Origin: Gemmatimonadales bacterium | GTDB lineage: Bacteria > Gemmatimonadota > Gemmatimonadetes > Gemmatimonadales > GWC2-71-9 | Assembly: GCA_045803515.1 (NCBI GenBank) | Contig: JBJMOX010000356.1 | Location: forward strand, 1-48,122 | DNA: 48,122 bases | Reading direction: 5' to 3' | Shown: positions 10,002-43,301 of the stretch, piece after piece | How the letters are laid out: each line of letters begins with the position of its first letter | How positions within the stretch are numbered: the stretch's first letter is position 1 | Program-made: the position numbers and the translations under genes | Notes under the pieces: generated by a model | What the model saw: only the letters and a program-made list of their open reading frames with translations | Databases searched by the model: none | Told to the model about the DNA's origin: nothing

Positions 10002-10458
10002 GTCCTTGAGGCCGGGCAGGACGGCACCCCGACCCCACCTGTGGGCGCTCGCCGCCGTGACTGCGATCGCAGCCTGCGCCTCGAGGAGCGCGGTCGCCGC
10101 CCCCGAGCCCGTACCTTCCTGTCAGGCCGGCGAGACCGGGCTCGTGCGGGACGTGCTCTATTTCGGCCGGAACCGGCCCGTCGGCGGCGAGGTGGCCGAC
10201 AGCGATTGGAACGCGTTCCTCACCGCGGTCGTCACGCCCCGCTTCCCCGATGGTCTCACTATCGTCGAGGCGCACGGCCAGTGGCGAGACCGGAGCGGCG
10301 TCGTCGAGCGCGAGCGCACCGAGCTGGTCACGTTGCTGCATCCAGCGGATTCGGCTTCCCAGCAGGCCGTCGAGGAGATCGCCAACGAGTACAAGCGGCG
10401 CTTCGGTCAGGAGGCGGTGCTCCGCGAGCGGCTCGCCGCCTGTACCCGCTTCTTCTAG
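9979..10458 (+). CDS. DUF3574-family lipoprotein
   Basis: ATG 9979/9982. Lipobox AIAAC. LYFGRN..VADSDWNAFLTAVVTPRFPDGLTIVEAHGQW. 23-nt overlap with the upstream gene. Confidence 0.65.
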   Translation: MMRVPPVESLRPGRTAPRPHLWALAAVTAIAACASRSAVAAPEPVPSCQAGETGLVRDVLYFGRNRPVGGEVADSDWNAFLTAVVTPRFPDGLTIVEAHGQWRDRSGVVERERTELVTLLHPADSASQQAVEEIANEYKRRFGQEAVLRERLAACTRFF

Positions 10459-10761
10459 CCACGCGCCGCGGTGCCCATCTCGGCCAGATCCTCCGGCTCA
10501 TACTGGGCCCACGTAGTGGTTCGAGGCTCGATGCGCAACTCGGCATGACATCTGATCAGTGGCTCGAGGAACAGAGTCCTTCTGCTCGCGGCTTGCGGAC
10601 TCCTGGCCTGCACAGGTGCGAAGCCCGCACCGCCCGTGACTTCGGCCCGGGGTGCGACAGTCTCGGCGGTGACGGCGGTGCCGGAAGAGGTGGACGGAAA
10701 TTTGCGCAGCTATCAGCGCGGCAGGATTGCGTTGCCATGACGGATACGGCAGCGCAGCAGG

Positions 10762-11357
10762 GTGGGGACGACGGAGCAGCCGCACCTGGTCTTTGTCACC
10801 GGCGGCACCGGCTATCTCGGACGCGTTCTCATCCCCGAGCTCCTCCACCGAGGACACGCAGTGCGGGCGCTGGTACGTCCCGGCTCCGGGCGAGGATTGC
10901 CGAAGCCCAGTCCGGCCAAGGCTGCACAGTTCCGGGCGGTCGATCTGGCGTCGATCCGCGCGTCGGTCGCGGTGGCCTCTCGCGGGTGGGGGTGCGGCAC
11001 CTGGTTTATGTCAGCGTAGCCTACCCCGCCCCCGTCATGCGGGCCTATCTTGCCGTGCGGCAGGAGGGAGAGACGCTGGTTCAGGCGAGCGGAGTGCCGG
11101 CCACGCTGCTCCGGCCCTGGTACGTGCTGGGTCCGGGGCATCGCTGGCCCTACCTGCTGCTTCCGCTCTACTCCGTGCTCGATCGTCTCCCCGCGACCCG
11201 CGCGGGTGCGGCCCGGCTCGGACTGGTCACCCGGCGGGAGATGGTGGCGGCGCTAGTGTCGGCGGTGGAACATCCACCTGCGGGAATCCGGGTCGTCGAG
11301 GTGCCGGAGATTCGCGGGAGACCGGACCAGGGAACTATGGGGAGGGCGACCGGTTGA
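10762..11357 (+). pseudogene. NAD(P)H-binding SDR/NmrA-like gene, apparently frameshifted and internally shortened
   Basis: Rossmann N-terminus VFVTGGTGYLGRVLIPELL..ALVRPG is in frame 1 and stops at 11017-11019. The C-terminal half GVRHLVYVSVAYPAP..LRPWYVLGPGHRWP.. continues in the frame of ORF 10041-11357. The switch is near the G-run at about 10985-10992. Confidence 0.5.
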
Positions 11358-11383
11358 GATCTCATACACCAGGCGGTAGTTGG

Positions 11384-11860
11384 ATGCGGCGGCGGTACCT
11401 CGCCGCGGTCGGGATCACATTCCTTGTCACCGGCCAGGCGTCCTGCCGGAGTCGGGACGGCGGGTTCGCGGCACTGCAGAGTCGCGGGGAGACCGCGATG
11501 GGGGTGAACCAGTACACCTCGTCGCACGTCTTCGAATCGCTCCCTGACGGAGGACGGATCGTGCTGCAGCGGCAGACCGAGGACTCCGCGGGCACCGCCA
11601 GGATCAGGGCTCACATGTCGACCATCGCTCAACAGTTCCGGCGCGGCGACTTTGCGGTTCCCGGCTTCGTGCATGCCCAGGGCGTGCCGGGTACGGAGGT
11701 GATGGCTTCTCATCGAGGGCAAATCAGCTACACGGCCGATACGCTGCCGAGGGGCGGTCAAGTCCGGATCACCACGACCGACACGGCCGCGTTGGCGGCG
11801 GTTCACGAGTTCCTGGCCTTCCAGCGGCGTGAGCACCACGCGGCCGGTCACGGCCCTTGA
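11384..11860 (+). CDS. hypothetical exported protein with His-rich C-terminus
   Basis: ATG 11384 inside ORF 10727-11860. Signal/lipobox-like VTGQASC. ..GGRIVLQ..IRAHMSTIAQQFRRGDF..GGQVRITTTD..HEFLAFQRREHHAAGH. Confidence 0.55.
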   Translation: MRRRYLAAVGITFLVTGQASCRSRDGGFAALQSRGETAMGVNQYTSSHVFESLPDGGRIVLQRQTEDSAGTARIRAHMSTIAQQFRRGDFAVPGFVHAQGVPGTEVMASHRGQISYTADTLPRGGQVRITTTDTAALAAVHEFLAFQRREHHAAGHGP

Positions 11861-12485: not shown

Positions 12486-12491
12486 CCGAAG

Positions 12492-12938
12492 ATGAGCAAA
12501 AAGAAGTCGGTCAAGCGGACGTCACCACGGCACAAGGACAGTGGCACCGAAGAAGCCGGTCGCCAAACGGCCGAGCGGCGCCGAAGTACCGCGGAGGGAG
12601 AGCGCGCTGCGGAGGCTCGGAATCAGTCCGCCGCGGAGAGCCAGCGCCAGGTTCAAGAGGCTGGTCGCGAGAGCGCCGAGGAAGCCCGGTCGGCAGCGGA
12701 GGAGTTGCGACAGCGCCGGGAGGAGGTGCGACAGCTCACCGAGACGATGCGGGTCGACGCGGAGCAGGCGCGTCGGCAGCAGGAGGAGATACGCGCCTTC
12801 CATGAGGCGGCACGCCAGGCAGCCGAGGAGACGAGAGCCGCCGCCGAGCGCGCCCGGGACGCGGAGCAAGAGCAGGCCGAGATTATCCGGCAGATGCGCC
12901 GGACCGCGGACCAGCTGCGGCGGGCGCCGCCGGATTAG
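12492..12938 (+). CDS. highly charged coiled-coil protein (E/R/A/Q-rich)
   Basis: 148 aa. Basic N-terminus MSKKKSVKRTSPRHK, then low-complexity helical AEE/RQ repeats. No TM. Confidence 0.5.
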   Translation: MSKKKSVKRTSPRHKDSGTEEAGRQTAERRRSTAEGERAAEARNQSAAESQRQVQEAGRESAEEARSAAEELRQRREEVRQLTETMRVDAEQARRQQEEIRAFHEAARQAAEETRAAAERARDAEQEQAEIIRQMRRTADQLRRAPPD

Positions 12939-12948
12939 GAGTGTCGCC

Positions 12949-13452
12949 GTGTCCATGAGCCCTGTCGAAGCGGCCTTCCGGCGGCTCACGCTGGGGGTCC
13001 ACGTCGTCGGTGTCGCCGGCAATGGACGCGCCGACGCGTTCACCGCCGCCTGGATCATGCAGGCGTCCTTCGATCCGCTGCTCCTCGCCCTCAGCATCAA
13101 TCGGGATCACGCCTCCTATCCCTTGCTCCAGGCCGGCCACGGGTTCGTGGTCAACGTGCTCAAACAGGAGCAGCTCGAGCTCGCGCGCGCGTTCGGAACT
13201 CAGTCGGGCCGTGACCGCGACAAGCTCGGCCTGGTCCGCTGGCGGCCTGCACGCGGCGGAGCGCCGATTCTGGAGGAGGCACTGGCGTACTTCGAGTGTC
13301 GCCTGGACGGCTCCATCCCCGCCGGCGACCACGAGCTGGTGCTCGGCCGGGTGCTCGACGCGCGCGTGCTGGACCCGGTGGCGGTCCCCCTGACGTATGG
13401 AGAGACCGGTGACATGGACGGCAGCAGCGCGCTCTATCCTGCCGGACTGTGA
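12949..13452 (+). CDS. flavin reductase-like (FMN-binding split barrel) protein
   Basis: GTG 12949 (or ATG 12955) after AGGAG. ..GVHVVGVAGNGRADAFTAAWIMQASFDPLLLALSI..HELVLGRV.. is typical of the family. Confidence 0.85.
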   Translation: MSMSPVEAAFRRLTLGVHVVGVAGNGRADAFTAAWIMQASFDPLLLALSINRDHASYPLLQAGHGFVVNVLKQEQLELARAFGTQSGRDRDKLGLVRWRPARGGAPILEEALAYFECRLDGSIPAGDHELVLGRVLDARVLDPVAVPLTYGETGDMDGSSALYPAGL

Positions 13453-13489
13453 TGCCCGGCGGAGTTGATGAAGCGCGCGGGAGACGTTG

Positions 13490-13876
13490 ATGGCGGACGT
13501 GGACGCAAGAGCGAAGCAGGTGGAGCTGCTGGCGGAGTGGAGTCGCTGGATGGTCGCTCTGGAGTCGGCGGTGTGCGCGCTGCTCTGGGAGCCGCTCAAG
13601 CAGCAGTCGGCCGCGCAATTTCCCTTCGGCCGCGGAATGTTGTGGGCCTGGGCAGGGTTCGCGCTCTCGACCGTGTGCGCCACGATCCTGTTGGGTCGGC
13701 TGCCGTGGCTTACCCCGGCCCTGCTGCAGCCCGAGCCGGGCGGCGAGTCCCTCCGCGCCAGACCGCGGCGGGAGCTCCTGATACTCGCGCTGGCGCAACA
13801 CGCCCTGTTTCTGACCGGCGTGCTTCTCCTGGTTGGCTTCGTGCTCCGCCGGGCCGCGCAGCAGGCCGGGTCCTGA
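13490..13876 (+). CDS. hypothetical multi-pass membrane protein
   Basis: About 128 aa with 3 hydrophobic segments. No family recognised. Confidence 0.45.
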   Translation: MADVDARAKQVELLAEWSRWMVALESAVCALLWEPLKQQSAAQFPFGRGMLWAWAGFALSTVCATILLGRLPWLTPALLQPEPGGESLRARPRRELLILALAQHALFLTGVLLLVGFVLRRAAQQAGS

Positions 13877-13893
13877 GCAGAAACCGGGCACCG

Positions 13894-14445
13894 GTGTACC
13901 GGCCGACCAGGGCCGAGGTGCTCGCCGCCGCCGGCGGCACCGTACCGGATCTGGTGGCGCCGGGACTGCGCGTGCTCTTCTGTGGCATCAATCCAAGCCT
14001 CTACTCCAGTGCCGTCGGATACCACTTCGCCCGGCCCGGCAACCGGTTCTGGCCGGCGCTGCACGCCGCCGGCTTCACCCCGCGCCTGCTCGCGCCGTGG
14101 GAGGGCCACCATCTGCTGACGCTGGGCTGCGGGATCACCAACCTGGTGGGACGGGCCAGCGCCACCGCGGCGGAGCTCGCGCGCGCGGAGCTGCGCGCGG
14201 GACGGGCTCGCCTCGAGCGGAAGGTCCGCCGGCTCGCGCCTCGCTGGGTCGCCGTCCTGGGCATTGGCGCGTACGCGACGACGTTTCGCACGGCCACGCC
14301 CCGAGTCGGCCCCCAGGCCGAGCGCCTGGCTGGTGCGGGACTGTGGGTGCTTCCCAATCCCAGCGGCCTGAACGCGAACCATCAGCTTCCGGAGCTGGGC
14401 CGCGCATTCGCCGCATTGCGGGTCGCGGCGGAAGCGGCGCAATGA
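13894..14445 (+). CDS. mug: G/U mismatch-specific uracil-DNA glycosylase (Mug/TDG family)
   Basis: DLVAPGLRVLFCGINPSLYS..HFARPGNRFW...VLPNPSGLN aligns along its length with E. coli Mug. GTG 13894 is chosen as the first in-frame start after the upstream stop; the start is uncertain. Confidence 0.8.
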   Translation: MYRPTRAEVLAAAGGTVPDLVAPGLRVLFCGINPSLYSSAVGYHFARPGNRFWPALHAAGFTPRLLAPWEGHHLLTLGCGITNLVGRASATAAELARAELRAGRARLERKVRRLAPRWVAVLGIGAYATTFRTATPRVGPQAERLAGAGLWVLPNPSGLNANHQLPELGRAFAALRVAAEAAQ

Positions 14446-14578
14446 CGCGTACTTTGCACGCCGGCCCGGACGGCCGTACTGGCGAAGCTCCCTGGTGTCG
14501 CATAGCGTACGGGCGAGAGCCGCACCCTCCGAACCCACGAGCTGGCGCCGATCGGATCTCCGACCAAGGGCAACCCCG

Positions 14579-14806
14579 ATGCGATGTGCACTCATCCCAG
14601 GAGCTCTCCTGCTCGTCTCGCTGACCGGATGCTCGCGACCAGCGGACCGGACCAGCGCCCGAAACGCCCCTTCCGACCGACAGCGGGACAGCGTGCTGGG
14701 TGCCTCTCGGCTGCCCGGAGCCGCCGGCGTGCGCCATGCCATCGAGGCGTCCGACTCAGGTGCCGCCCGACGCAACCGGGAAGACTCCGTGGCGTCGGCT
14801 CCATGA
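14579..14806 (+). CDS. small lipoprotein, hypothetical
   Basis: ATG 14579 gives MRCALIPGALLLVSLTGCSRP (classic lipobox). ATGA overlap with the downstream GNAT. Confidence 0.5.
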   Translation: MRCALIPGALLLVSLTGCSRPADRTSARNAPSDRQRDSVLGASRLPGAAGVRHAIEASDSGAARRNREDSVASAP

Positions 14807-15327
14807 CTGAGCGGGTCCAGGTGCGGCTGGCGATTCCTCAGGACGCCGACCTGATCGCCGGGCACCGCGTGCGCATGTTCCAGGACATGGGCCAGCTTCC
14901 GCCCGATCTCGTCGAGCCCTTCCGGTCCAGCGCACGAGAGCGCCTGTGGGTTCTCCTGGAGACAGGGGAGTACGTGGGCTGGTTGGCGAGTACCCGGGCA
15001 TCTCCGGGCACAGTGGTGGCCGGGGTCGGGGTCCAGCGGCGCCAGGTGTTTCCCCATCCGCGCCAGCGCGCGGACGGAAGCATCGTGGTGGCGAGCGGCC
15101 GTCACGCCATCGTCCTCAACCTATTCACCGAGCCATCCTGGCGGCGCCAGGGAATCGCCGAGCTGCTGATGCGGCACGCCCTCGAGTGGGCCCGGTGTGA
15201 GCGGCTCGACCGGCTCGTGCTGCACGCATCGGCCGAGGGCCGGCCGCTGTACGAGCGGCTGGGATTCGTGCCCACCAACGAGATGCGCTTCGCGGATGAG
15301 CTCCAGCCGTCCTCCGCGGGGTGCTGA
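14803..15327 (+). CDS. GNAT-family N-acetyltransferase
   Basis: ATG 14803. ..LFTEPSWRRQGIAELLMRHALEWAR..LHASAEGRPLYERLGF (acetyl-CoA binding motif A). Confidence 0.8.
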   Translation: MTERVQVRLAIPQDADLIAGHRVRMFQDMGQLPPDLVEPFRSSARERLWVLLETGEYVGWLASTRASPGTVVAGVGVQRRQVFPHPRQRADGSIVVASGRHAIVLNLFTEPSWRRQGIAELLMRHALEWARCERLDRLVLHASAEGRPLYERLGFVPTNEMRFADELQPSSAGC

Positions 15328-33060: not shown

Positions 33061-33714
33061 ATGGCCGAGACCGCCAGCCGGGACCAGATCCTCGATGCCG
33101 CCGAGCGGCTCTTCGCCGAGCAGGGCTTCGCGCGCACCACGATCAAGCAGATCGGCCGCGCCGCCGGCGTGAACAGCGCGCTGCTCTACTACTACTTCGC
33201 CGGCAAGGAGGAGCTCTACCAGGAGGTGCTGCGGCGCCTGATCGGGCACCTGGTCGAGCGGACCAGTGGCAGCCTGGATCAGCCCGGCCCGCCGGAGTCC
33301 CGCCTCCGGGCGCTGGTCGCGGCGCAGGCGGAGGTGATCGCCGCCAACCCCCGCTTTCCCCGCCTCCTGGTGCGCGAGCTGGCGGAATCGGACGCGGCCC
33401 ACGCGGTCGGCCAGCTCCACGTCCTCGCGGCCACCACTTTCCGGCGGCTCTGCGATCTGGTGCGTGAAGGCCAGGCGGCCGGAGTCTTCCGCCGCGGCCT
33501 GGACCCCCGCTTCGCGGCCATCTCCATCGTCTCCCAGGTGGCGTACTTCACCATCGCGCGCCCGGCGATCCGGATTCTGCTGAAGACCGGCCCGGAGGGA
33601 CCCTCGCTCGGCACGCTGCGTGCCTTCGCACGGCACGCCGCGGACTTCGCCCTCGCCGGCCTGACTGCGCGCCCCCTGGTCGCTCGCCGCGGCCGCACCA
33701 GGAAGGCCGGATGA
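33061..33714 (+). CDS. TetR/AcrR-family transcriptional regulator
   Basis: HTH region ILDAAERLFAEQGFARTTIKQIGRAAGVNSALLYYYF. Confidence 0.9.
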   Translation: MAETASRDQILDAAERLFAEQGFARTTIKQIGRAAGVNSALLYYYFAGKEELYQEVLRRLIGHLVERTSGSLDQPGPPESRLRALVAAQAEVIAANPRFPRLLVRELAESDAAHAVGQLHVLAATTFRRLCDLVREGQAAGVFRRGLDPRFAAISIVSQVAYFTIARPAIRILLKTGPEGPSLGTLRAFARHAADFALAGLTARPLVARRGRTRKAG

Positions 33715-34669
33715 GACGGGCGCTCCTGTGGGTGCCACTCGCCATGATGGCCTGCACCCACTCCAGGACCGATCGGATCGTGGGCACCGGAACCATCGAG
33801 GTGCGGGAGCTGGAGGTTGCCCCCCAGGTGCCGGCCCGGGTGGTGCGGGTGTGGGTGGATGAAGGCGAGAGCGTGAGCCTGGGTGACACCCTCGTCGTGC
33901 TCACCCAGTCGACCACCCGGGCCGACCTGGCGCAGGGCGAAGCCCGCCTCCGCTCGGCGGAGGCGGCGCTGCGCGAGGCGGTGGCCGGTGCCCGGCCCGA
34001 GGAGGTTCGCCGCGCGGAAGCCGATCTTCGGATGGCCGAAGCCGAGGCCGAGCGGACCAGGCGTGACCTGGAGCGGATTCGCCCGCTTGCCACCACCGGC
34101 ACCGTGAGCCGGCAGTCCCTGGATGACGCCGAGGGTGCCGCAGCGTCCGCCGCCGCCCGGCGCGACGCCGCGCGTCACGCGCTCGATCTCCTCCGCGAGG
34201 GCACCCGGCCGGAACGGGTCCAGGCGGCACGAGCCGAAGCCGCGCGGGCTCGCGCGGCGCTGCAGGCCACCACCGCGGTGGCGCAGGACCTGGTGCTGCT
34301 CGCGCCAGTATCCGGCGTCGTCCTCTCCCGCAACGCCGAGCCCGGGGAGATGCTCGCCATCGGCCAGTCGGCCGTGACCCTCGGCGAATCCGCCGCGCCC
34401 TACGTGCGAGTCTACGTCCCTACCCGTCAGTTGCCCCGGGTGCGTCAGGGGCAGGCGGCCACGGCCGTGCTGGATGGATTTCCCGATCGGCCGATCCTCG
34501 GCCGGGTGGTCGCCATCAGAGCCGAGGCGGAATTCACGCCCCGCGTGGCGCTCACCGAGCGGGAACGTGCCGATCTGGTCTTCGGCGTCAAGGTCGCGCT
34601 CCAGGATTCGACCGGGCTTCTCAAGCCGGGACTTCCGGCCACGGTGGAGATCCACGCCCCGGAGGCTCC

Positions 34670-34673
<4 letters not shown>
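33711..34673 (+). CDS. HlyD-family membrane fusion protein (YbhG-like)
   Basis: Lipoyl-like ..VRVWVDEGESVSLGDTLVVL.., a coiled-coil segment, and ..LKPGLPATVEI... ATGA overlap with tetR. Confidence 0.85.
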
Positions 34674-35424
<751 letters not shown>

Positions 35425-35428
<4 letters not shown>

Positions 35429-36516
35429 GACTCTGGCCGATGCTGTGGAAGGAGCTGGTGCAGCTCCGCCGGGACCGGTTCACCCTCGCGATGATGCTCG
35501 GCATCCCGGCCATCCAGCTGGTGCTCTTCGGCTACGCCATCCAGACCGAGGTCCGCCACCTTCACACCGTGGTACTGGACGAGTCCCGGACGCCGGAGAG
35601 CCGCCGGCTGATCGAGGTGCTGCGGAACACCGGGAACTTCGACATCGTCGAGCAGGTCCGAACCCGCGCCGAGCTGACGGATCGGATCGAAGCCGGCCGG
35701 GCGAGCGCCGGGCTGGTCATTCCGCCGCGCTTCATGCGGGACATCGAGCGCGGCACCGGGCAGGCCCAGGTCATCGTGGACGCCGCGGACCCGCTGGCCT
35801 CCTCCGCGGCGCTGTCCGGCGCCATGCTGGCCGCGTCGGCCCGCGCGGCGGCGCTCGACGGCGCCCGGCCTCCCCGGCTCGAGGTGCGGGTCCGGCCATG
35901 GTACAACCCGGGCCTCCGGAGCGCGGTGTACATCGTGCCGGGGATCATCGGCGTGTTGCTTTCCCTCACGCTGGTGCTCATCACCAGCATGTCGATCGTC
36001 CGGGAGCGCGAGCGGGGTACGCTGGAGCAGCTCATCGTCACGCCGATCGACAAGACCAGCCTGATCCTGGGAAAGATCCTGCCGTTTCTGCTGATCGGAT
36101 ACGTGCAGATCACGGTCATCCTGATTCTGGGCCGGCTGCTCTTTCAGGTCCCCATGCTCGGCAGCCTGCCGCTGCTCTATCTCCTGAGCTTCGCGTTCAT
36201 CGTCGCGAGTCTCGCGCTCGGGCTCCTCATGTCGACCCTGGTGCGGAGCCAGGTGCAGGCGATGCAGCTGAGCTTTCTCTTCCTGCTCCCGAATATTCTC
36301 CTCTCCGGCTTCATGTTTCCCCGTGAGGCCATGCCGGCGCCGGCCCAGTGGATCGGGGCGGCGCTGCCGCTCACCTACTTTCTCACCATCCTGCGGGGCG
36401 TGCTGCTCAAAAACGTCGGACTGGACCATCTCTGGCGCGAAGGACTCATCCTCGTCGCCTTCGCGGTCATCCTGGTGGCGCTCAGCGTGGCGCGGTTCCA
36501 GAAGACCATCGAATAG
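35425..36516 (+). CDS. ABC-2 family transporter permease (YbhS/YbhR-like)
   Basis: ATG 35425 (ATGA overlap). ..MLWKELVQLRRDRFTL.., a large periplasmic loop, then 5 TM. The upstream 317 codons of ORF 34474-36516 are an out-of-frame shadow. Confidence 0.9.
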
Positions 36517-36555: not shown

Positions 36556-38642
<2,087 letters not shown>

Positions 38643-38646
<4 letters not shown>

Positions 38647-39464
38647 CCTGGAATCCAGAGCCGCTCGCCCCCGTGTCGCCGGGCTCTCGGAGCAGCCTCG
38701 GCGACTCGGCGGCGGCGGCGCCGACGGGTTTTCCCAAGCGTGAAGTGCTGGACCGATGGCTCGCCGATGCGGGCCAGCAGCTGGACGCGCTGCAGACCGC
38801 GCTCTACGCGGAAGGGAAGCGCGCCGTGCTGGTGGTGCTGCAGGGCAGGGACGGGTCCGGCAAGGACGGCACCATCCGCCGGGTCTTCGGCCCGTTGAAT
38901 CCCCAGGGCTTCTCGGTCACCAACTTCCGGGCGCCGACGCCGGTCGAGCTGGCGCACGACTTCCTGTGGCGGGCCCACCTGGCCGTGCCTGCCAAGGGGA
39001 CCATCGGCGTGTTCAATCGATCACACTACGAGGACGTGCTCGTGGTCCGCGTCCGGCAGCTGGCGCCCGAATCGGTCTGGCGGCCGCGATACGAGCAGAT
39101 CAATCAGTTCGAGCGGATCCTGAGCCAGAACGGCGTCACGATCCTCAAGTTCTTCCTGCATATCTCGCGGGACGAGCAGCGCGAGCGCCTGCTGGCTCGG
39201 CTGGACGACCCGGCCAAATACTGGAAGTTCTCGGCGGGCGACCTGGACGACCGGAATCGGTGGGAGGAGTACAACGAGGCATACGGGGAGCTGCTGCAGC
39301 GGACCAGCACCGAGGAGGCGCCCTGGTTCCTGGTGCCGGCGGACAAGAAGCACGTACGGGATGTGCTGGTGACCGCGACGATGCTCGCGGCGTTGGGACG
39401 ATTGAATCCACAGTATCCCGGCCCACCGCCCGAGGCCGCGGCGCTTCGGAAGGCGCTCGGCTGA
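38643..39464 (+). CDS. ppk2: polyphosphate kinase 2 family protein (PPK2)
   Basis: GTG 38643 overlaps the glgX stop (GTGA). VVLQGRDGSGKDGTI Walker A and FNRSHYEDVLVVRV lid motif. Confidence 0.85.
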
Positions 39465-39466
39465 GG

Positions 39467-39934
39467 TCAGATGCTTCCGTCGGGCCCCACGATCACGTAG
39501 GTGATGTCGCCGCCGTTGAGGACGAAGGGTCCTTTGTTCCCCAGCGTCTGCGCCAGGGCGTTGCTGAGCCGGGCATTGGCGGCGCTCAGGACGACCCCGA
39601 GCTGCATCCCGCCGGAGCTTCCGCCGCCGGGCGGCGCGAAGTTCTCCCAGTCGAGCGTGTACTCGGTGCGCTGGAAGCTGAACCCCTTGGGCAGGTAGGG
39701 GACCAGCTCGGCGGGAAGCACGCCTGGACCCACGTCCCCGGGCCAGCTTCCGGTCTCGTACCATGCGCTGTAGGCGGCGAGGCGCACCGTCTCCAGATCC
39801 GCGCTGGCCTGGGCGGCGAGCGCCCGATTCCTGAGATCGATGTACTTGAGGATCGCCAGGCCACTGAGCAGCCCCATCACCACGATCACCATCAACAGCT
39901 CCACGAAGGTGAAGCCCCGCCGCATCCGGCTCAT
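39467..39934 (-). CDS. type IV pilin/pseudopilin-like protein (prepilin-type N-terminal cleavage/methylation domain)
   Basis: MSRMRRG|FTFVELLMVIVVMGLLSGLAIL, with Gly-1, Phe+1 and Glu+5. 155 aa. ATGA overlap with the upstream gene. Confidence 0.75.
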   Translation of the reverse strand: MSRMRRGFTFVELLMVIVVMGLLSGLAILKYIDLRNRALAAQASADLETVRLAAYSAWYETGSWPGDVGPGVLPAELVPYLPKGFSFQRTEYTLDWENFAPPGGGSSGGMQLGVVLSAANARLSNALAQTLGNKGPFVLNGGDITYVIVGPDGSI

Positions 39935-40481: not shown

Positions 40482-40859
40482 TCAGGTCTCCAGGCGCTCG
40501 CCGGCGCGCGCGCGGGTCACCAACTCGGGGAAGCTCCGGATGTCGATCGGCTTGGTGATGTACCCGTCGAAGCCGGCGGCCATGGCCCGTTCGCGATCAC
40601 CGCTCATGGCATGCGCGGTCAGCGCCAGCACCCGGAGCCCCTGGTGCGGGGACCGGCGGATTTCTTCGAGTAGCGCGTAGCCATCCTTGCCCGGAAGCTG
40701 GATGTCCATGAGCACCAGGTCCGGCTGGACCCGGCCGATGACCTCCAGCATCCCCTCGCCACCGGCGAGCCCCGTCACCTCGTGTCCTTTGAGGACCAGG
40801 AGGGTACGGAAGAGCTTCATATTGTCTGAGCTGTCCTCGACGATGAGAATCTTGGCCAT
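40482..40859 (-). CDS. single-domain response regulator (CheY-like receiver)
   Basis: ILIVEDS..LVLMDIQLPG..LALTA..YITKP (acid pocket, phospho-Asp, Thr, Lys). Confidence 0.9.
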   Translation of the reverse strand: MAKILIVEDSSDNMKLFRTLLVLKGHEVTGLAGGEGMLEVIGRVQPDLVLMDIQLPGKDGYALLEEIRRSPHQGLRVLALTAHAMSGDRERAMAAGFDGYITKPIDIRSFPELVTRARAGERLET

Positions 40860-40958
40860 TGCGCGTCTCGTCCGAAGGCAAAATCTACGCCAGTGGAGGG
40901 GTCCAAACCCGTGCCGCTTGCCCGTACGGTGCTCGCGACCGCGTGGGCAATCGCTTGA

Positions 40959-43199
40959 TCAGCACATGCTTGCGCGCTTGAGTACCGCCCGCACCCGGGC
41001 CACGAGCGAGCGAGTCTGGACCGGTTTGGTGAGATAATCGTGGGCGCCGAGGTCCAGGGCTTTTTCCTCGGTATCGTCGTGGTGTGCGGTCAGGATGATG
41101 ACCGGAAGCGCTGCGGTGCGCATCTGTGCCCGCAGCTCCTCCAGCACGCCCAGCCCGTCGAGCCGGGGCATGTCGACATCGAGCAGGACCAGGCTGACCG
41201 TCTCCTGCTCGAGCCGATCGAGCGCGTCCAGTCCGTCCACCGCCTCGATCACTTCGAAGCCCTCGCGCTGGAGCACGTTCCGGATGAGGCGCCGCATCTG
41301 GGGGTCATCATCCGCCACCAGGATGCGATTCTGCGATTCCGGAGTGGCCGCGACCGGCCCCGCGGGTGGGGTGGTGGTCGCCACCACCGGCACCGGGGCG
41401 GGTGGTTGGGGGGCGGACTCCTCACCGGCCCGGTCTCCCAGGACGCGGGTGAGCTCGTCCAGCGACGTCGCACCGTCCCACACTCGCTCGAGACCGCTCT
41501 CCCAGAGGGTGCGCATCCACACCTTGGTCGCGGCGGCGGCCAGCGCCTCGGGAAGCGCACCCCCATCGATCAGGCGGGCGACGGTCTCGTCGATCGGCAT
41601 GATCTCCAGAATCGCGAGGCGTCCGCGGTAGCCCCTTCCATTGCATTTCCGGCATCCCACCGCGCGGCGGATGCGGACCTCGCCGGCCCGGTCGGCGGGT
41701 GGTCGCACATCGGGGGCGAGCGACTCGAGAGGCACCGGCTCGGCACAGGCGTCGCACAAGCGGCGGACCAGCCGCTGGGCCACGACGCCCTTGAGGACCG
41801 AGGCCAGCTTGAAGGCATCGATTCCCAGGTCGCGCAGCCGGACCACGGCGGACGGCGCATCGTTGGTGTGCAGGGTGGAGAGCACGAAGTGGCCGGAGAA
41901 CCCCGCCTGGATCGCGATGGTGGCGGTCTCGAGGTCGCGGATCTCGCCCACCAGCACGATGTCGGGGTCCTGCCGCAGCACCGAGCGCAGGGCCTTGGCG
42001 AAAGTGAGCCCCTGGGCCTCGCTCACCTGGATCTGGGAGATGCCCGCGATGTCGTACTCCACTGGATCCTCGACCGTGACGATATTCACCCGCCCGGTCT
42101 TGAGCTGGTTGAGCGCCGCGTAGAGCGTGGTGGTCTTGCCACTGCCGGTCGGCCCCGTGATCAGCACCATCCCCTCCCGGTGGCCGAGCAGGCGCTCCAG
42201 CGCCGCGGTCTCGCTCGCCGGCAAGTGGAGGTCGGGGACGTTGGCCCGCAGGTTGGCCTTGTCGAGAATCCGGATGACGACCTTCTCGCCCCGGCGGGCG
42301 ACAGGAATGGTCGAGACCCGGAGATCGACAGCCTGGCCGTCCACCCGCGCGGAGGCCCGGCCGTCGTGCGGCCGCAGCGGATCGGTCACGTCGAGCTTGG
42401 CCCAGACCTTGACGCGCCGGACCAGCGCCGAGCCCGCCGCTTCGGGCAGCCGCATCACCTCGTGCAGCACACCATCCACCCGGTAGCGTACCACCACGCC
42501 GCCTTCGGTCGGTTCGGCGTGGATGTCGCTGGAGCCCTCCCGGACTGCGTCGCTGATCATGGCATCCACCAGCTTGGACACCGGCGCATCGAGCGCCCGG
42601 TCGGCCGCCGGGGCTGCAGGCTCGTGCTCGACCGTCTCCAGCTTGGCGGGCTCGAGCCCATCCAGCAGCCGTGCGATGGCGCGCTCGGGCCGGTACAGCT
42701 CGTCCAGTCGCGTCGCGATCGCCGCGGGGGCGGCCAGCTGGAAGGCGACATCCCGGCCGGTGATGAACTGGAGCGTCTGCTCCAAGTCGAGGTCCCGCGG
42801 GTCGGCGCTCGCGATCCGGATGGTCCGGTCGTTGGCCGACATCGGCACGACCTGGTACTTCCGGGCGACCGCCTCCGGCAAGAGCGTCGTCGTGCGCGGC
42901 TCGCAGAGAGCGAGATCGGCCAGGGGGATGCGGAAGCGCTGGGCCACGATCTCGAGGATCTGCCCGTCGGTGGCCCGGCCGCTGGCGGTGATCCCCGACC
43001 AGAGCGTCGGCCCGCCTTCGCTGCGCACCTGCGCGAGCTGATCGGGACTCAACAGACCTCCTCCGATCAGCACCGGTGCGAGCCACGCGTCGGCCGGCTC
43101 CGGCGCGAGCGTGCCGCGAGCGGAGGTGTTTCCGTCGGAAGGCGCATCGGCGAGAGCCGTGCGCGAGGGGCGGGCGTTACGTTGAGAATCGATCGCCAT
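40959..43199 (-). CDS. GspE/PilB-family secretion/pilus ATPase fused to a C-terminal receiver domain
   Basis: ATG 43199 after AAGGA. T2SSE_N-like N-terminus, GPTGSGKTTT, DPDIVLVGEIRD, GHFVLSTLHTND, CDAC..CRKCNGRGYRGR, a Pro-rich linker, then receiver ILVADDD..LLDVDMP..ILTA..LTKP. Confidence 0.9.
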   Translation of the reverse strand: MAIDSQRNARPSRTALADAPSDGNTSARGTLAPEPADAWLAPVLIGGGLLSPDQLAQVRSEGGPTLWSGITASGRATDGQILEIVAQRFRIPLADLALCEPRTTTLLPEAVARKYQVVPMSANDRTIRIASADPRDLDLEQTLQFITGRDVAFQLAAPAAIATRLDELYRPERAIARLLDGLEPAKLETVEHEPAAPAADRALDAPVSKLVDAMISDAVREGSSDIHAEPTEGGVVVRYRVDGVLHEVMRLPEAAGSALVRRVKVWAKLDVTDPLRPHDGRASARVDGQAVDLRVSTIPVARRGEKVVIRILDKANLRANVPDLHLPASETAALERLLGHREGMVLITGPTGSGKTTTLYAALNQLKTGRVNIVTVEDPVEYDIAGISQIQVSEAQGLTFAKALRSVLRQDPDIVLVGEIRDLETATIAIQAGFSGHFVLSTLHTNDAPSAVVRLRDLGIDAFKLASVLKGVVAQRLVRRLCDACAEPVPLESLAPDVRPPADRAGEVRIRRAVGCRKCNGRGYRGRLAILEIMPIDETVARLIDGGALPEALAAAATKVWMRTLWESGLERVWDGATSLDELTRVLGDRAGEESAPQPPAPVPVVATTTPPAGPVAATPESQNRILVADDDPQMRRLIRNVLQREGFEVIEAVDGLDALDRLEQETVSLVLLDVDMPRLDGLGVLEELRAQMRTAALPVIILTAHHDDTEEKALDLGAHDYLTKPVQTRSLVARVRAVLKRASMC

Positions 43200-43301
43200 A
43201 TCCTTACAATGCTGGCCTGCCTCAGGCACTCACGGCGGCGGTTGCCGCCTCACCCAGGCTGGTGGATGCGCTCCGTGACGTCTTGCAACGGAAACTGATC
43301 G

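Follow-up and report, generated by a model that had tools for sequence, protein, structure and literature searches.

Can the motor of a type IV filament be placed under the direct control of a two-component signal by carrying its own receiver? This question was raised by a gene on contig JBJMOX010000356.1 of a Gemmatimonadales bacterium (assembly GCA_045803515.1), within a stretch of 48,122 nucleotides (nt) that is referred to below as the window. The gene, hereafter ATPase-REC, encodes an assembly ATPase of type IV filaments that belongs to the PilB/GspE family and carries a receiver (REC) at its C-terminus. An initial annotation had described it as a PilB/GspE-type ATPase with a cis-fused CheY-like receiver, and this domain assignment was supported by our profile and motif data. 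From the architecture and its conservation we infer a control of the motor by phosphorylation: the reading that we favour, with moderate confidence, is that of a functional hexameric motor of the PilB/GspE family bearing a tethered, genuine receiver, in which phosphorylation of D674 would set motor activity. The gene and the parts of its product are distributed as follows.

40959..43199, minus strand: whole ATPase-REC gene (746 codons and a stop)
42936..43085, minus strand: degenerate MshEN_N four-helix region, residues 39-88, from an alignment to V. cholerae MshE (5HTL)
42678..42935, minus strand: MshEN/T2SSE_N1 (PF05157), residues 89-174 (Pfam, 8.8e-18)
41445..42590, minus strand: T2SSE ATPase core (PF00437), residues 204-585 (Pfam, 7.4e-125)
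41325..41444, minus strand: Pro/Ala-rich flexible linker, residues 586-625
40962..41324, minus strand: receiver (REC), residues 626-746 (Pfam Response_reg at 626-737, 2.7e-32)

The same frame is open from a GTG at 43229 (open reading frame, ORF, 40959..43229, minus strand), and the ATG at 43199 gives a product of 746 amino acids (aa). The latter is likely because AAGGA lies just before this ATG and because this start agrees with the N-termini of the orthologs; the initial annotation had correctly placed a 746-aa product at 40959-43199. The comparison with Pfam profiles that it had proposed located MshEN, T2SSE and Response_reg in one ORF, MshEN at residues 89-174 corresponding to the predicted T2SSE_N-like N-terminal domain. 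T2SSE (PF00437) scored 416.9 bits for a gathering threshold of 24.9 and was covered from profile position 5 to 370 of 370, and Response_reg (PF00072) scored 111.7 bits for a threshold of 30.2, with positions 1-111 of 111 covered. The Walker A (GPTGSGKTT, 349-357), the His box (GHFVLSTLHTND, 436-447) and the tetracysteine zinc motif (CDAC at 482-485 and CRKC at 516-519), all of which had been announced, were located in the 746-aa product. The stretch DPDIVLVGEIRD (411-422), previously labelled Walker B/Asp box, is indeed present and is the Walker B with its catalytic Glu, but not the Asp box, which we take to be VTVEDPVEYDI, N-terminal to the Walker B (read from the translation by comparison with the family motifs). 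Likewise, the receiver is complete, as had been claimed for about 40962-41335, but its span ends at 41324. Its expected motifs were all found (ILVADDD, 626-632; LLDVDMP, 672-678; ILTA, 702-705; LTKP, 723-726), and the phospho-acceptor could be pinned to D674, the first Asp of LLDVDMP, whose codon is at 41178-41180.

The continuity of the frame through the linker into the receiver, also stated by the initial annotation, was borne out by codon usage and by recurrence. In-frame G+C content at third codon positions (GC3) was 0.90 over T2SSE, 0.80 over the linker and 0.84 over REC, with stops in both other frames, and the uninterrupted ORF was found again in independent assemblies with identical synteny. 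MshEN, T2SSE and Response_reg were combined in one protein in 120/120 of the best database matches (60-92% identity), among which the named proteins were from Gemmatimonadales metagenome-assembled genomes (MAGs). Mean identity of the ATPase core across these 120 orthologs was 78%; the linker was 8 to 68 aa long, with 26% identity. The ratio of non-synonymous to synonymous substitution rates (dN/dS), computed against the two closest intact orthologs (92% identity), was 0.11-0.13 for the whole gene, 0.06-0.09 for the ATPase core, 0.06-0.09 for the receiver and 0.26-0.62 for the linker. On account of these ratios and of the variation in linker length, the ATPase and the receiver can be considered to belong to a single functional protein, in which they are under equal constraint and are linked by a free tether.

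Alternatively, the ORF could result from the joining of two genes (an ATPase and a CheY), either through an error of sequencing or assembly or in a pseudogene under decay. The GC-rich, low-complexity nature of the linker would be consistent with this, as would the decay of the gene in many relatives (see below). However, the same unbroken ORF was shared by >120 independent clusters and by many assemblies, codon bias was continuous over the ATPase/REC junction, selection was strong overall with dN/dS below 0.1 in each domain, and the catalytic motifs were all intact. We regard this explanation as extremely improbable and, judging from the sequence, consider an artefact or pseudogene excluded for the window copy. 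Two candidates for unfused close relatives, P0243 and P0244, were discarded: P0244 is cut by a contig end and shows identical synteny, and P0243 lies on a 2-kb contig.

Is the receiver of a type that can be phosphorylated, and to which motor is it attached? Among 121 orthologs, little or no variation was seen at residues D630, D631, D632, D674, T704 and K725, and at position 722, the aromatic switch, 120/121 had Y or F. Going by these residues, the fused REC is a canonical phosphorylatable receiver rather than a pseudo-receiver. Its best family and structure matches were OmpR/PhoB-type receivers (RpaB, CpxR, PhoB, PhoP) and PleD. The best solved homologs of the motor were full-length PilB proteins of Geobacter (5TSG/5ZFR/6OLJ) and Myxococcus (3JC8), aligned over residues 40-586 (E ~1e-122 to 1e-125), followed by EpsE/GspE and Thermus PilF. 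With PilB the window protein shares the MshEN-N1E-N2D-CTD layout, the Walker, Asp and His boxes and the tetracysteine motif; PilB, however, is devoid of a receiver, and the window gene is not beside pilC or pilT and has degenerate MshEN_N motifs. No solved chain with T2SSE and a receiver together was found among the structure matches to the 746-aa protein. Both NCBIfam equivalogs were matched below their cut-offs: PilB (TIGR02538) with 502.9 bits for a cut-off of 675.65, and GspE (TIGR02533) with 512.2 bits for 630.25.

The N-terminal domain suggested that the other input known for these motors, cyclic diguanylate (c-di-GMP), may be altered in this family. The published MshEN motif consists of a tandem 24-residue RLGxx(L/V/I)(L/V/I)xxG(L/V/I)(L/V/I)xxxxLxxxLxxQ, and XpsE is a non-binder (PMC5013675). 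In the alignment to MshE (5HTL), residues contacting c-di-GMP are replaced in the window protein (R9 by W39, G11 by A41, R38 by T65, G40 by W67 and Q61 by R88), and a 3-residue deletion falls over MshE L29-A31. The protein fails the tandem motif, and the same pattern was found family-wide in the 121 Gemmatimonadales sequences, W39 being kept in 112/121 and W67 in 119/121. Since the published MshEN/XpsE determinants (PMC5013675) are not matched, canonical c-di-GMP binding by the window MshEN appears unlikely. A strict regular expression for the motif was absent from 107/115 REC-fused representatives and also from 143/151 unfused PilB/GspE-type ORFs of other phyla; as most sampled unfused proteins fail it too, loss of the motif is not specific to REC fusions. 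The same expression gave one motif only in L007, a protein judged canonical by eye. A subfamily rule by which REC replaces c-di-GMP sensing was accordingly dropped, the expression being too strict, and the residue-level statement was kept for the Gemmatimonadales family. A D-x-W-L ... [ST]-x-W N-terminal signature was also rejected as a subfamily hallmark, having matched 11/108 REC-fused representatives only.

To assess the distribution of the fusion, 1.84 billion cluster representatives were searched exhaustively with HMMER, and domains were mapped locally on the best 150 (representatives of 50%-identity clusters). At least 115/150 of these had a receiver C-terminal to T2SSE, 101 with the full MshEN-T2SSE-REC order, and 3/150 had an N-terminal receiver. 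When the ATPase domain alone was considered, the nearest neighbour of a C-terminal-REC protein was another such protein in 107/116 cases, which suggests, in a sample biased toward high scorers, a coherent subfamily. Outside Gemmatimonadota the fusion was found in Desulfobacterota-type MAGs (L005-L007, ~36% identity, c-di-GMP motifs well preserved) and in Omnitrophota, where at locus L087 a stand-alone REC adjoins the fused gene. The 2016 MshEN catalogue (Wang et al., PMC5013675 Suppl. Table 4) lists REC-MshEN-T2SSE (Gmet_3473), GAF-MshEN-T2SSE and MshEN-T2SSE-cNMPbind; the C-terminal-REC form is not in that architecture table. For none of these catalogued fusions did the literature searched contain an experimental study. 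The product name 'GspE/PilB-like protein/CheY-like' is already in use in IMG. The initial annotation had named, as a point that would tell against its proposal, evidence of an already characterised, widespread subfamily; widespread it is (115/150), but not characterised, as no experimental paper was found. The REC-fused PilB/GspE architecture is thus widespread in uncultured bacteria, catalogued in a related form and experimentally unstudied.

Several architectures related to this one were encountered in the same sample. Tandem T2SSE-T2SSE proteins of ~1000 aa, with both domains complete, made up 14/150 of the best representatives (e.g. P0245, P0248, P0251, P0252, P0255, P0256); such a protein amounts to a covalent dimer of the hexameric motor subunit. 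Larger relatives (P0268, P0270, P0302, P0340, P0341, P0342, P0374) extend the MshEN-T2SSE-REC core with TPR, GAF, a double zinc-ribbon before REC, two more receivers, or 600-750 residues without Pfam match. At the Desulfobacterota-type locus L005 (1-11700), the REC-fused ATPase has canonical c-di-GMP motifs and lies in a dense signalling cluster including a GAF-histidine kinase, a REC-GAF-cyclase and a PAS-histidine kinase-REC-Hpt protein; a GGDEF gene directly precedes the ATPase gene and an HDOD gene follows it. This arrangement suggests a dual input, by c-di-GMP and by phosphorylation, for that particular ATPase.

What could such a motor act on? Three genes follow ATPase-REC on the same strand, preceded by a promoter-like element.

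40878-40892, minus strand: sigma54-type -24/-12 element TGGCGTAGATTTTGC, its first base 33 nt ahead of the start codon of CheY; the window's only match
40482..40859, minus strand: stand-alone single-domain response regulator (CheY), 125 aa
39931..40458, minus strand: 175-aa Gemmatimonadales-specific protein
39467..39934, minus strand: prepilin, 155 aa; leader MSRMRRG / FTFVE, cleavage site G/FTFVE

This four-gene cassette (ATPase-REC, CheY, the 175-aa gene and the prepilin gene) is conserved in relatives, where it also keeps its position, flanked by PDH-aroA-cmk-rpsA and, at the opposite end, by the PPK2 and glycogen-debranching genes. The stand-alone CheY has 36% identity to the fused REC and is closest to receivers of hybrid kinases. 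The 175-aa protein could not be assigned to a Pfam family, and its fold matched no PDB entry significantly (best E 0.83). Its confident AlphaFold 2 model (predicted local distance difference test 82.5) consists of a long helix, then an alpha + 3-strand domain made of another helix and three strands, the N-terminal helix being highly conserved (KKALL[DE]AFDTVLKT). From the sequence and the model, read by us rather than by a transmembrane predictor, the long helix seems to be this N-terminal helix running on into a hydrophobic stretch, a putative single membrane span. A GspG-like 'GRLPxxL' stretch noticed by eye in this protein was supported by nothing else and was not retained. The 175-aa gene is always translationally coupled to, or beside, the prepilin gene, the ATG of which overlaps the stop of the 175-aa gene (ATGA) in the window. 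The prepilin model has a type IV pilin fold, with PilA1 of C. difficile and PAK pilin as its top matches (probability 1.0, template modelling score ~0.5). The idea of an unusually conserved, pseudopilin-like pilin was rejected, since identity among orthologs was 41-71% for the pilin and 62-74% for the ATPase, the pilin being the faster of the two to diverge; close relatives showed 75-77% identity for the pilin vs 92% for the ATPase.

Comparison of the DNA upstream of CheY at 26 aligned loci revealed a single conserved block amid unconserved sequence, TGGCGT-N5-TTGCC, present in 26/26 and identical to the sigma54 -24 GG / -12 GC consensus with exact spacing. In 36/45 loci, the 120 nt ahead of the first gene contained TGGC-N7-TTGC, for a background of 0.007 per 120 nt; the loci considered included the window, L001, L084, L086 and L089-L128. 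At loci with a CheY gene it begins 31-33 nt before the CheY start; those that have lost CheY keep it ahead of the 175-aa gene. This positional conservation indicates that the unit formed by CheY, the 175-aa protein and the pilin is probably a separate, near-leaderless transcript from a predicted sigma54 promoter. Genes for the major pilins of type IVa pili are classically preceded by a sigma54 promoter, as with pilA of Pseudomonas and Myxococcus. At L095, L097, L098 and L116 the element occurs in tandem. A scan for sigma70 promoters and terminators gave nothing useful at the cassette.

The cassette was further used to follow ATPase-REC across species. As a query in reference genomes the ATPase was swamped by generic GspE peptides, and the lineage-specific 175-aa protein was used instead; it retrieved 41 loci, all from uncultured Gemmatimonadales MAGs, of which 38 include PDH. 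Over the region from PDH to the 175-aa gene (L089-L129), ATPase-REC was intact in 6/38, present as remnants in 17/38 and without trace in 15/38. The 175-aa gene was full-length in 35/38, as was the pilin gene (35/38), and the stand-alone CheY was lost or partial in 13/38. Breakpoints and frameshifts of the remnants differed among genomes: in terms of query residues, L089 retains 1-92, 181-248 and 535-746, L113 retains 70-154 and 591-743, and L110 retains 37-73 and 677-744. The reference genome closest to the window, L089, thus carries a pseudogene. Genomes with and without an intact gene were interleaved in a tree built from the retained proteins, with a parsimony minimum of 8 changes, which gives at least 8 independent losses of ATPase-REC. 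Many remnants comprise only ~690-746, and the last 30-55 codons of the receiver, which lie beside the sigma54 element, are usually kept; we suspect that this 3' region holds sigma54 upstream activator sites. Because most sister species shed the gene yet keep the pilin pair, ATPase-REC is probably an accessory motor or regulator and not the core or sole engine.

A sequence of events compatible with these observations can be proposed. A phosphorelay, probably of the hybrid kinase/Hpt type, would phosphorylate D674. The phosphorylated OmpR/PhoB-like receiver would change its oligomeric or docking state, and this change would gate assembly of the ATPase ring or nucleotide cycling, filament extension being thereby switched directly by the two-component signal. 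In the window protein, the N-terminal MshEN, through which c-di-GMP usually acts, looks degenerate. The stand-alone CheY would probably compete for the same phosphodonor, as a sink or relay, and would be co-transcribed from the sigma54 promoter with the 175-aa putative membrane protein and the type IV pilin, the presumed substrate or partner. With respect to the phosphodonor, a hybrid histidine kinase-REC-REC-Hpt protein is encoded near ATPase-REC in L001 and directly upstream of it in L004, and the PAS-histidine kinase-REC-Hpt gene mentioned above is upstream in L005.

Several observations weigh against this scheme. Linkage to a kinase is not conserved among orthologs, none being present at L084-L086, and in the window, the ORFs of which are partly annotated, no gene for a kinase, PilC/GspF, PilMNOPQ, a secretin or a prepilin peptidase was found. 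The gene is dispensable, having been deleted or having decayed in 32/38 reference genomes while the pilin pair stays intact. As the CheY-175-aa-pilin unit has its own promoter, the ATPase may not be co-regulated with it. The bit scores place the 746-aa protein in the PilB/GspE superfamily, but in neither curated equivalog. Finally, no experimental or biochemical work on any REC-fused T2SSE ATPase, N- or C-terminal, was found in the literature searched; the same literature yielded nothing on Gemmatimonadota pili. Among the partly annotated ORFs of the window, no gene was found either for a sigma54 activator, a pilT-like retraction ATPase or a CheA-type kinase, and the 10-kb flanks of four orthologous loci contained no platform, alignment complex, secretin or prepilin peptidase gene, and one prepilin gene only.

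The main rival to phospho-gating is a receiver with a localisation or phosphate-buffering role. The domain would then not be a catalytic regulator; it would be a scaffolding module, by which the ATPase is tethered to a signalling hub such as the pole or a kinase cluster, or a phosphate sink or relay. The long, variable linker suits a loosely tethered module of this kind, and outside Gemmatimonadales the REC-fused ATPases are mostly found amid signalling genes and not in pilus operons. The second, stand-alone REC beside the gene can be read in the same way, as can the TPR, GAF or additional REC domains that follow the receiver in some relatives. However, a receiver as constrained as the ATPase and a fusion stable across very divergent clusters are what functional coupling predicts, and most characterised fused receivers control the attached output domain. 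We therefore hold this alternative to be unlikely, though it deserves to be kept in mind. Another possibility concerns the machine rather than the receiver: the ATPase could drive a pseudopilus like that of type II secretion, or serve type IV filaments in a different function (such as secretion or DNA uptake), the adjacent pilin being a pseudopilin. The slightly higher score for GspE than for PilB (512 vs 503 bits, both below cut-off) goes in this direction, together with a pilin without cysteines and with weak family matches to GspG/GspH N-termini, and with the lack of a pilT-like gene among the partly annotated ORFs of the window. Against it stand the best full-length solved homologs, which are PilB and not GspE, the pilin model, which matches type IV pilins (PilA1, PAK) rather than GspG, the predicted sigma54 promoter before the pilin, and the fact that no secretin or GspC-M genes were found nearby. 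We regard this alternative as quite unlikely, and a phosphorylation-controlled, PilB-like motor remains the reading that we prefer.

This preferred reading can be extended into a broader proposal, which we put forward as a doubtful one. PilB-like ATPases with a C-terminal receiver could form a large, overlooked class of response regulators with a filament motor as output, in which phospho-dimerising receivers across neighbouring C-termini would gate hexamer assembly as in NtrC1/DctD, replacing c-di-GMP control and switching pilus extension directly by a two-component signal. In Gemmatimonadales, together with the 175-aa protein as a previously undescribed membrane adaptor and the dedicated pilin, they would constitute a compact, sigma54-wired accessory filament module, gained and shed under selection, for example by pilus-specific phages.

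Comparison with known systems provides precedents for parts of this scheme. The ATPase core is homologous to that of GspE/EpsE (E 1e-108), and the engineered EpsE-Hcp1 fusions (4KSS/4KSR), of which 4KSS was among the structure matches, are of particular relevance: the C-terminally attached part reportedly drives hexamerisation and activates the enzyme, which would be a precedent for control from the C-terminus. Natural GspE, however, has no REC, and the window protein has no gsp genes nearby. In NtrC, DctD and NtrC1, phosphorylation controls ring assembly. These proteins, like the window protein, have a receiver joined by a linker to a ring-forming P-loop ATPase, but they are mechanistic analogues only: the sigma54-activator AAA+ domain differs from the T2SSE/RecA-like one, their REC is N-terminal, their output is transcriptional and there is no homology beyond REC. 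MshE-type ATPases have an N-terminal domain of the same family, and the catalogue contains sensory domains fused to MshEN-T2SSE (PMC5013675); the window protein differs from them by its C-terminal REC and by a tandem 24-residue c-di-GMP motif that is not conserved.

Control of an extension motor by a receiver is also documented in trans. Response regulators act on PilB in Synechocystis (PixG/PixH, PMC11181946) and in Xanthomonas (DrdR, PMC13507683), and PilG/PilH of the Pseudomonas Pil-Chp system, PixG/PixH and other PATAN-REC proteins, and DrdR are all cases in which a phosphorylatable receiver controls the extension motor (PMC11181946; 10.1101/2021.06.11.447907; PMC13507683). The controlling receiver is moreover paired with a second, antagonistic single-domain receiver, to which the adjacent CheY of the window can be likened. 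These trans regulators are separate proteins, whereas the window receiver is covalently fused, a 'Rosetta-stone' version of the same relation, and has no CheA-type kinase gene nearby.

The action of CheY-like proteins on PilB in the PilG/PilH, PixG/PixH and DrdR systems is still being worked out, and a natural fusion offers a tractable single polypeptide. The subfamily comprises more than 100 clusters at 50% identity in several phyla, and its mechanism would annotate many genes now named only 'PilB/GspE'. The repeated losses with pilin neighbours kept represent a natural knockout series, which could show the contribution of a regulated motor. Against this, the architecture was already visible in domain databases, nothing in it is mechanistically unprecedented and the organism is uncultured, which makes it a useful lead rather than a surprise. 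Its main value would lie in offering a small natural model for studying the gating of a secretion-ATPase ring by a receiver, and in the unusual pattern of repeated loss.

Some other features of the window are worth recording. Beyond the prepilin gene, the region 36556-39464 (plus strand) encodes a glycogen-debranching (isoamylase-type) enzyme and PPK2, the latter gene converging on the prepilin gene with a 2-bp gap. It is preceded at 33061-36500 (plus strand) by an efflux operon consisting of a TetR regulator, an HlyD-type membrane-fusion protein and an ABC ATPase, and this synteny is common to relatives. Rfam and tRNA scans of the window gave no matches. The ORFs at 10041-11860 (plus strand) and 12883-15105 (minus strand) had no Pfam match and may be spurious. 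At 12486-12938 (plus strand), an ORF with good codon bias encodes a 150-aa, highly charged, Glu/Arg/Ala-rich, repeat-like protein (…AEEARSAAEELRQRREEVRQLTE…).

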